In this document: positions 37,300 through 37,928 of the stretch, piece by piece
Position numbering within the stretch: the first letter of the stretch is position 1
Layout: every line of letters starts with the position of its first letter
DNA from: Thermoplasmatales archaeon SW_10_69_26
Lineage (GTDB): Archaea > Thermoplasmatota > SW-10-69-26
Length of the DNA stretch: 64,000 nt
Assembly (NCBI GenBank): GCA_003009755.1
Contig: PXUB01000001.1
Coordinates: 85,854-149,853, forward strand
Direction: 5' to 3'
The notes under the pieces: model-generated
Database searches by the model: none
What the model saw: only the letters and a program-made list of their open reading frames with translations
What the model was told of the DNA's origin: nothing
Made by a program: the position numbers and the translations under genes

Positions 37300-37844
37300 A
37301 AACCTTGACCAAGCCCCACGTAGTGACCCCGCCGCCGCTTACGTGCGGGCTGCGGGGGTAGCCTAGCCAGGTCATTCGAACGGATCGGAGATCCGTCCTC
37401 TCCCGGGATCCGCGCGAGTCGCCGTCGGTTCCCGGGATTCGCACGGACCTCGCACCGTCGTCGGTTCGTACTCGCCCGAGAAGGCAAGCTTCTCGGGCAT
37501 CCGTACGGCCAAGGCCGTACTCGCTCGGAACCGAAACACGGTTCCTCGCGGAAACCTTGACCTGGAGGCGACCTCCATCGGCACAAGTCTGCGGAGGTAG
37601 CCTAGCCAGGTCATTCGTACGAACCGTTCATCCCTGCCGGTTCGTACTCGCCCGAGAAGGCAAGCTTCTCGGACAGGAAACCTTGACCTGGCAGGCTCCC
37701 TCATTGCCACGAGGTCTGCGGAGGTAGCCTAGCCAGGTCATTCGCACGAACCGCGCGATCGCTACCGGTTCGTACTCGCCCGAGAAGACGAGCTTCTCGG
37801 GCAGGAAACCTTGACCTGGAAGCTACCTCCATCCCACGGTATCC
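37300..37844. repeat. Tandem repeats of the tRNA-Ser 5' 23 nt with antisense copies (127-bp period)
   Basis: GCGGAGGTAGCCTAGCCAGGTCA at 37352 (1 mismatch), 37591 and 37718; tRNA at 37845. Confidence 0.92.
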
Positions 37845-37928
37845 GCGGAGGTAGCCTAGCCAGGTCAAGGCGCCGGTCTTGAAAACCGGTGGGCCTAGCC
37901 CACGGGAGTTCAAATCTCCCCCTCCGCG
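37845..37928 (+). tRNA. tRNA-Ser(TGA)
   Basis: Acceptor GCGGAGG/CCTCCGC; anticodon arm CCGGT-CTTGAAA-ACCGG; variable arm. Confidence 0.95.

Follow-up and report, generated by a model that had tools for sequence, protein, structure and literature searches.

Hairpin cassettes and inverted copies of tRNA ends form small modules at tRNA genes of a Thermoplasmatales archaeon

Described repeats at tRNA genes and the present locus

tRNA genes are classic landing sites of mobile DNA, and in the landing cases known to us, what remains are plain direct repeats of 3′ gene sequence. Integrases cross over in the anticodon and T loops of tRNA genes, and integrative elements reportedly bring about att-site duplication and accretion there. 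In Escherichia coli, the tyrT-linked repeats (rtT RNA, RF00391) lie in tandem downstream of a tRNA gene, are cotranscribed with it, and each contain a piece of the tRNA 3′ end. The REP, BIME, and REPIN sequences of bacteria are short extragenic palindromic repeats mobilized by RAYT, and we know of no link between them and tRNA ends. The attP site of the CTX phage and the attC sites of integrons are folded single-strand recombination sites, in which a sense-antisense duplex with an extrahelical part mimics the target. Template switching produces the duplication/inverted triplication/duplication rearrangements of human genomics, which have a sense/antisense/sense order. The closest described elements are the PATEs of haloarchaea, which are terminal-only (~52 bp) derivatives of IS200/IS605 elements (PMC3119063).

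Here, we describe an array of repeats upstream of the tRNA-Ser(TGA) gene of Thermoplasmatales archaeon SW_10_69_26 (the source genome, G000), located within a 64,000-nt stretch of DNA (the window, to which all coordinates refer unless another contig is named). Its units combine a copy of the tRNA 5′ end, a double-hairpin cassette that we call X, and an arm antisense to the tRNA; a full-text literature search found no description of such tRNA-end foldback modules. Like the tyrT repeats, the units are in tandem, adjoin a tRNA gene, and each carry a terminal piece of that tRNA, but they have no Rfam match, and rtT has neither an antisense arm nor a hairpin cassette. With att duplications, the array shares direct repeats of a tRNA segment beside an intact tRNA as well as breaks in the anticodon and T loops, and, as in att accretion, an integrase-like open reading frame (ORF) and att-like tRNA-Glu fragments are found nearby. 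Unlike att duplications, however, the units are only ~127 bp long and gene-less, it is the 5′ end that is duplicated, the break is in the D-loop, and each unit also contains the site in inverted form. X resembles REP, BIME, and REPIN sequences as a many-copy short extragenic hairpin with conserved stem bases and variable tips, but its host is an archaeon, in whose genome a RAYT-type Y1 HUH transposase was not found. The likeness to the CTX attP and integron attC sites is one of form only. Compared with the human inverted triplications, the rearrangements here involve tens of bases rather than kilobases, their junction positions are fixed, and the hairpin cassette is always present. X and the PATEs are both gene-less, 50 to 65 bp long, provided with two near-terminal palindromes but no terminal inverted repeats, strain specific in their presence, and often located inside other repeats. 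In contrast to the PATEs, X has no constant 4- to 5-nt target word and no IS200/IS605 TnpA or TnpB in its genome, and its position in tRNA-arm loops, together with partial tRNA copies and antisense arms, has no counterpart in the PATE passages of PMC3119063.

Anatomy of the array and its relatives

The array precedes the sole TGA isoacceptor among the ARAGORN calls in the genome (Table 1). As the initial annotation had proposed, each unit opens with the first 23 nt of this tRNA. The tRNA-like starts are spaced by 239, 127, and 127 nt, and every copy departs from tRNA-Ser immediately past ...GGTCA, within the D-loop. Tandem Repeats Finder reported a period of 127 (2.5 copies, 86% matches) for 37550 to 37867. 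In units b and c, the 23-nt copy (E1) is followed by X (61 to 62 nt, TTC-h1-TCGCC-h2), AGG, AAA, the antisense arm (CCT TGACCTGG .. GCTACCTCC), and a leader of 13 to 14 nt; in each unit, the arm spans tRNA positions ~26 to 3, read backwards. Unit a is longer because it has three cassettes in tandem, and the first hairpin in this stretch (ACGGATC..GATCCGT) is a genome-wide repeat. The units are 127 to 239 nt long and without a credible ORF, and their number depends on the assembly of a metagenome-assembled genome (MAG), no independent contig covering the entire array. Of the two hairpins that had been assigned to every unit, CCGAGAAG/CTTCTCGG was found in all three, whereas GTACGAACCG/CGGTTCGTAC occurs in units b and c but is replaced in unit a by the three different cassettes. 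Similarly, the arm had been given as GGAAACCTTGACCTGG..GCTACCTCC; GGAAACCTTGACCTGG is present three times (37550, 37676, and 37804), but exact GCTACCTCC is confined to the third arm, the others having GGCGACCTCC and GGCTCCCTC. A second, truncated tRNA copy, which lay outside that description, follows the gene.

TABLE 1 Features of the array and of the tRNA copy downstream of it (window coordinates)
Feature	Position	Strand	Remarks
Outermost BRE/TATA-like motif GAAACCTTGACCAA	37299..37312	+	53 nt 5′ of first fragment; 7.1 bits (PWM, 45 tRNA upstream regions)
E1a, copy of tRNA-Ser positions 1-23	37352..37374	+	22/23 identical
Three tandem X-type double-hairpin cassettes	37375..37549	+	~61, 64, 50 nt
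Antisense arm a (GGAAACCTTGACCTGG..GGCGACCTCC) and 13-nt leader	37550..37590	+	z 10.2
E1b, tRNA positions 1-23	37591..37613	+	23/23 identical
Xb double-hairpin cassette	37614..37674	+	TTC-h1(GTACGAACCG)-TCGCC-h2(CGAGAAG); inserted past D-loop position 23
AGG, AAA turn, antisense arm b, 14-nt leader	37675..37717	+	12-nt perfect complement to 37859-37870; z 10.5
E1c, tRNA positions 1-23	37718..37740	+	23/23 identical
Xc double-hairpin cassette	37741..37802	+	same build as Xb
AGG, AAA turn, antisense arm c (CCTTGACCTGG-AA-GCTACCTCC), 13-nt leader	37803..37844	+	z 10.5; holds promoter-like site 37805
Intact tRNA-Ser(TGA)	37845-37929	+	ARAGORN; Rfam tRNA 63.7 bits
5′-truncated second tRNA copy (positions 16-85 and CTTCTC trailer)	37934..38136	+	split by two reverse-orientation X cassettes
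X cassette I2, reverse orientation	37953-38017		within anticodon loop of downstream copy
X cassette I3, reverse orientation	38055-38116		within T-loop of downstream copy

The claims that the arm is nearly the reverse complement of the tRNA 5′ end and lies about 30 to 40 bp upstream of each tRNA-like start both held: a 12-nt perfect match is present, and the arm begins 40 to 41 nt 5′ of each start. We aligned the 45 nt 5′ of each tRNA-like start locally with the reverse complement of tRNA nt 1-23 to 1-28 and compared the scores with those of 500 shuffles (at the G005 locus on contig C22, 23 nt of tRNA were used, the contig ending there). All 11 unit-internal regions, three in the window and eight in relatives, gave z scores of 4.1 to 10.6; none of the 500 shuffles reached the score in nine of them, and one or two shuffles did in the other two. 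The three arms of the window stood at z 10.2 to 10.5 with 0/500 shuffles as high. In contrast, the arm was absent from all six outermost promoter regions (z −1.4 to 3.0), and 20 tRNA-Ser genes without units, at 18 comparison loci, gave z scores of −1.4 to 0.3 with one exception at 2.6. This distribution indicates that the arm is a feature of the module and not of the native promoter. In the outermost motif of the window, the sequence antisense to the tRNA is limited to CCTTGACC (z −0.4).

Two further observations were made on these sequences. Some antisense arms (GGCGAT.. in G005 C22, 1519 to 1625; GGCGACCTCC in the window, 37550 to 37577) fit a GGTCGCC-variant tRNA start better than the adjacent tRNA; this variant is that of tRNA-Ser(GGA) and of the outermost G005 fragment, which hints at sequence exchange between serine tRNA loci. 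CTTCTC stands directly 3′ of many tRNA genes in G000 (37930 to 37935 and 17901 to 17906 in the window, and several other loci), often opening a hairpin CTTCTCGAC..GTCGAGAAG, and may be a common trailer or termination signal.

Extended matches to the units were restricted to genomes of the same family of Thermoplasmatota MAGs. One unit each was found at tRNA-Ser(TGA) of G002 and G003, two each at tRNA-Ser(CGA) of G003 and G005, and three fragments, running up to the contig end, at the second G005 locus (C22); at the loci fetched from G001 and G004, units were absent. In all of these units, the break lies past position 23 and the turn follows AGG or AGGC, two positions that are the same in three genera, with two hairpins of differing sequence followed by (C)AGG(C)-AA(A)-(G)CCTTGACC. 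In the predicted consensus fold of 10 units (RNAalifold), E1 pairs with the antisense arm in a stem from which h1 and h2 branch, and 11 of 30 pairs are changed on both sides. The pair at E1 position 18 (18:100) is A-U in TGA-type modules (CCAGG/CCTGG) and C-G in CGA-type modules (CCCGG/CCGGG), showing that the arm matches its own tRNA. The mismatches in the consensus fold comprise nine G-U and eight A-C, an equality that favors nothing about RNA over DNA pairing. The outermost fragments of G002 and G005 differ from their own tRNA by 3 to 4 bases. The Ser(CGA) units of the two species of genus g4, two in each, are orthologous (79 to 85% identity); the G005 Ser(CGA) cassette had no further copies in five family genomes and matched only the orthologous G003 locus. 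These units look inherited and stable, which argues against a freshly mobile cassette.

For the mirror-image modules at tRNA 3′ ends (see below), the motif GATKWGAACC-N2-6-GGTTCR was counted in 21 genomes of the class. It matched 11 times in G000, three times in G003, and once in G010, the latter being a real module, while the single matches in G004 and G007 were chance occurrences with no tRNA nearby; the other 16 class genomes and the reversed-pattern controls gave none. A 16-base junction pattern matched genome contigs more than 119 times, with units at two (L074 and L097) of the 80 loci listed, 75 of which were judged by record title alone, and is too loose a pattern. Among its matches, loci L038 (Methanocellaceae) and L100 (Pyrobaculum) were chance occurrences without a tRNA. 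A 20-base pattern, which is blind to variants such as that of G003, found one match in metagenome contigs, also by chance.

Modules across tRNA genes and their proposed origin at the DNA level

To place the array in its genome, we used 51 tRNA genes, obtained from 57 ARAGORN calls in G000 by dropping three "???" calls and three longer than 90 nt. A copy of the gene's own last 14 nt lies within 450 nt downstream of 19 of them, with an antisense T-arm between gene and copy in 14 of these 19, and four of the 51 carry a 5′ copy. Only at tRNA-Ser(TGA) does the antisense arm extend backwards across the break and on into the 5′-terminal fragment; at tRNA-Arg(CCT) and tRNA-Arg(TCG), the foldback after X turns at the anticodon loop, and its short antisense stops before the fragment. 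Modules on the 5′ and 3′ sides mirror each other, both having the outward order of spacer, break-spanning antisense, short turn, a few sense bases, X, and terminal fragment. In two genera, X has plus orientation in 5′ modules and minus orientation in 3′ modules. Its TTCG.AC-h1 end always abuts the terminal tRNA fragment, and therefore its orientation flips between upstream and downstream modules, following the tRNA fragment and not the direction of transcription.

The cassette itself is 61 to 65 nt long, with two near-terminal hairpins and dissimilar ends (TTCG.. and ..GGGC). Adjacent double hairpins with its conserved bases (TTC-G.ACG..CGT.C-TC-TC[CG]CGAGA) number 81 pairs in the genome, some located away from tRNAs. 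X sits in the D-loop (tRNA-Ser and both tRNA-Arg genes), the anticodon loop (I2 and tRNA-Val), or the T-loop (I3 and the 3′ modules), and its left flanks end in TCA, ATA, ATT, CAA, or TAA. The D-loop sites have no target duplication; at I3, comparison of the filled with the empty site shows CGAAT at both ends, CGAAT also being the T-loop's own sequence. In the downstream tRNA-Ser copy and in the tRNA-Val units, X occurs without an antisense arm.

Both X and unit number vary between halite strains, as judged from contigs of four halite runs over 36800 to 38500, each difference being seen in a single contig of a short-read assembly. One contig (depth 32.7, ~93% identity) covers the tRNA through the downstream copy and passes from ...TTCGAAT straight into CTCCCCCTCCGCG, so that I3 is precisely absent. 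Another jumps 126 nt (37549 to 37676), about one unit, and a third departs from the locus just past tRNA-Ser, lacking the downstream copy. Neither circles nor empty sites of whole units were seen beyond what tandem-repeat slippage accounts for.

The anatomy of the units, the recurrence of such modules at many tRNA ends, the rule for the loop and orientation of X, and the strain differences make up a finding that is real and unusual. We give about even odds to the explanation that the units are repeat DNA without coding function, generated and maintained at the DNA level as an inverted triplication (sense/antisense/sense) that was amplified in tandem. According to this scheme, a truncated copy of the tRNA 5′ end (positions 1 to 23) would have been broken in its D-loop by a ~61-nt X, a member of a palindromic repeat family scattered through the genome. 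Beyond X come three more tRNA bases, a turn, a snap-back tRNA copy (~26 to 3), and a short leader that runs into the next copy. The triplication would regenerate an intact gene beside the broken fragment. We infer that X may insert or recombine into the hairpin loops of tRNA-gene arms and that cells would survive only where an intact tRNA is restored, by a foldback or by duplication in tandem. The placement at the DNA level is favored by the mirror symmetry, the orientation tied to the fragment, the local copying of the arm, the decay of the outer fragments, the strain differences, and the spread over a third of the tRNA genes.

Against this placement stands the search of six family MAGs (72 to 95% complete), in which no responsible enzyme was identified: the Y1 transposase (PF01797) was found in none of the six, and TnpB (PF07282) in G004 alone. 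Moreover, the fixed break point past position 23 and the turn, common to three genera, are more regular than random template switching and fit either a precise enzyme or a selected function. Given this regularity and the lack of a known transposase, we retain two bolder readings, namely a precise integrative module and a selected leader.

In the first of these, which we regard as unlikely, the unit is a miniature attP-only integrative module of ~110 to 127 nt that recombines within the shared 23 nt, either by means of a tyrosine recombinase or in a folded single-stranded form, repeated events producing the array and the arm supplying a promoter. Direct repeats of a tRNA segment (four copies of positions 1 to 23) do flank each unit, and in the DNA fold predicted for one unit (−37.2 kcal/mol, z −6.4), X branches off a stem in which E1 pairs with the antisense arm; by analogy with the CTX phage attP and integron attC, such a duplex of sense and antisense would mimic the target, with X as a side branch. 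A weak integrase-like ORF at 36138 to 37100 (PF00589, 19.8 bits, below the cutoff of 27.1; no PHROGs match) ends ~250 nt upstream of the array, overlapping the 3′ end of tRNA-Glu(CTC) on the opposite strand, and this neighboring tRNA has five extra 3′-end copies at 21.8 to 28.7 kb, as is typical of the accretion of integrated DNA. However, the units are gene-less, with the integrase-like ORF outside them, X alone is the indel at I3, X stands without an antisense arm in the downstream copy and the tRNA-Val units, and no whole-unit circles or empty sites were seen beyond slippage.

The surroundings of this ORF were recorded further. All three Phage_integrase-like matches in G000 (C2:33474-33929, C19:59113-59667, and 36138 to 37100 in the window) adjoin tRNA genes, namely tRNA-Gly(CCC), tRNA-Phe(GAA), and tRNA-Glu(CTC). 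The 3′-terminal 14 to 16 nt of tRNA-Glu(CTC) are present in six copies, at 21849, 28287, 28390, 28614, and 28716 and in the gene itself (37082 to 37156, minus strand); the same ~95-nt repeat precedes three of the six, and a DNA methyltransferase gene (32909 to 34306) lies between the extra copies and the gene. A complete tRNA-Glu module (fragment, X, short sense, turn, and antisense) is found at 28390 to 28490, 8.6 kb from the tRNA-Glu gene. The stretch from 21760 to 37160 thus looks like stacked integrated elements, and the ORF, the tRNA-Glu copies, and the methyltransferase would place the array where a zone of accreted, integrated DNA ends.

The same kind of 3′ module also ends one inovirus-type provirus in IMG/VR, which bears on the integrative reading. 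Two 3′-module patterns gave 78 matches, of which this one had a full module, but the patterns were derived from the module itself, and a looser pattern, with at least 114 loci, had no modules among the matches listed. The provirus fragment (L249, G041; 6.3 kb) is inovirus-like, as seen from its hallmark Zot (1.3e-14) and G2P-type Rep (1.3e-13) genes, and bears the module, of either phage or host origin, at its border (5783 to 5945), flanked on each side by a 25-nt copy of a tRNA 3′ end. A bacterial host is suggested by the encoded CCA and by a hairpin that, with its T run, resembles a terminator. Its tRNA fragment is absent from G000, its Rep protein and module region had no match in the phage collection, the Atlas offered nothing usable on its 641-aa protein, and neither Zot nor G2P genes were found in any of the six family genomes. 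A related and slightly more doubtful proposal is that the modules are the footprint of an undescribed small mobile DNA aimed at tRNA-arm loops, the arms being copied from the target and X being the constant core, whose integration would rebuild the tRNA and add a promoter on its 5′ side. Every copy would thereby bring along a folded duplex that imitates the site of its own insertion, and the design shared with the provirus hints that such DNA may operate in single-stranded form.

Promoter likeness, transcription, and remaining alternatives

The arm had also been said to resemble BRE/TATA motifs. We built a promoter profile from 45 tRNA upstream regions of G000 (consensus GCAACGCTCTTATA; median best score, 9.1 bits) and found a site in each arm, GAAACCTTGACCTG, at −40/−41 that scores 5.2 bits, within the top 0.45% of window positions; the promoter likeness is real but weak. 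The complementarity of CCTTGACC to D-loop GGTCAAGG accounts for part of this likeness, and the promoter look of the arm is probably in large part a by-product. In three relatives, a strong TATA box is restricted to the position before the first fragment, those of G003 and G005 (TTTTTATGT, GCTTAACC) being much stronger than the arm site. On the other hand, the best promoter-like site 5′ of the real tRNA-Ser, 37805, lies inside arm c; judged from the sequence, this arm may now serve as the tRNA-Ser promoter, and the units may well be transcribed. Separately, hairpin h2 scores 7.1 to 9.3 bits, above the antisense arm, across its loop and 3′ arm (GCAAGCTTCTCGG.) at 37660 to 37673 (unit b) and 37484 to 37497 (unit a), and these sites begin 58 nt and ~107 nt, respectively, before the next tRNA-like start.

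The initial annotation proposed that read-through could sequester the 5′ end of the real tRNA, an idea with thermodynamic support. In the predicted RNA fold of two units plus the tRNA (z −10.7), the minimum free energy structure pairs each arm with the next tRNA-like start, so that the last arm covers the 5′ part of the real tRNA, leaving the 3′ acceptor strand paired to the first fragment. Two considerations would weaken this effect: during transcription, each arm would meet its own preceding fragment first, and a transcript from the promoter of the last arm would exclude that arm. Structural conservation had likewise been expected, and the fold is indeed kept across genera, but this can be explained at the DNA level by the local copying of the arm, the two orientations of X, and the parity of G-U and A-C mismatches; a dedicated small RNA headed by the tRNA piece is thus possible but is not the best-supported reading.

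We consider it improbable, then, that the units are RNA genes transcribed from their own BRE/TATA-like arms or a read-through leader that hides the tRNA 5′ half and tunes maturation. The −40 site in every unit, which supplies the best promoter candidate of an essential tRNA, the doubly changed pairs of the consensus fold, the predicted pairing of the last arm, and an architecture common to three genera all point to such a role. The low promoter score relative to the genome median, the TATA boxes of G003 and G005, the occurrence of X in both orientations relative to transcription, the lack of a G-U excess, the expected loss of the last arm from its own transcript, and the rarity of modules outside the family, as seen in the 3′-motif counts, argue against it. 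Furthermore, between 36500 and 38800, only the two tRNAs reach an Rfam gathering score, and the rtT model (RF00391) has no match up to an E value of 1.

That the array is an assembly artifact of a metagenome bin is very improbable. No independent contig spans it, and short-read assemblers break at repeats, but contigs of run X1 match 36800 to 37491, 37588 to 37744, and 37715 to 38150 without difference, and four independently assembled loci in three other genomes have the same architecture. Least credible of all is that the fragments belong to a split tRNA-Ser, or to one with several introns, whose pieces the archaeal splicing endonuclease would join: the fragments do end in loops in which non-canonical archaeal tRNA introns occur, and the 34 nt past E1a have 82% complementarity to the sequence preceding the last 3′ fragment (I1), but the I1 match arises because the same palindromic hairpin is present at both places, and an intact tRNA-Ser(TGA) gene exists. 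A scan for bulge-helix-bulge motifs at seven junction pairs gave scores of 5 to 8 out of 10, whereas 2000 junction pairs drawn at random averaged 7.2.

About one third of the tRNA genes in G000 thus carry small modules in which a hairpin cassette in an arm loop stands beside an inverted copy of the tRNA end, and the promoter-like site on which an essential tRNA seems to depend is located within one of them. Should a precise enzyme be their maker, the modules would represent a new way to target tRNA genes. If they are repair scars, palindromic repeats would reshape tRNA loci and could create promoters and long structured leaders. Either way, the modules explain the odd "exploded" tRNA fragments found in archaeal MAGs and caution against calling such fragments split tRNAs or new RNA genes.
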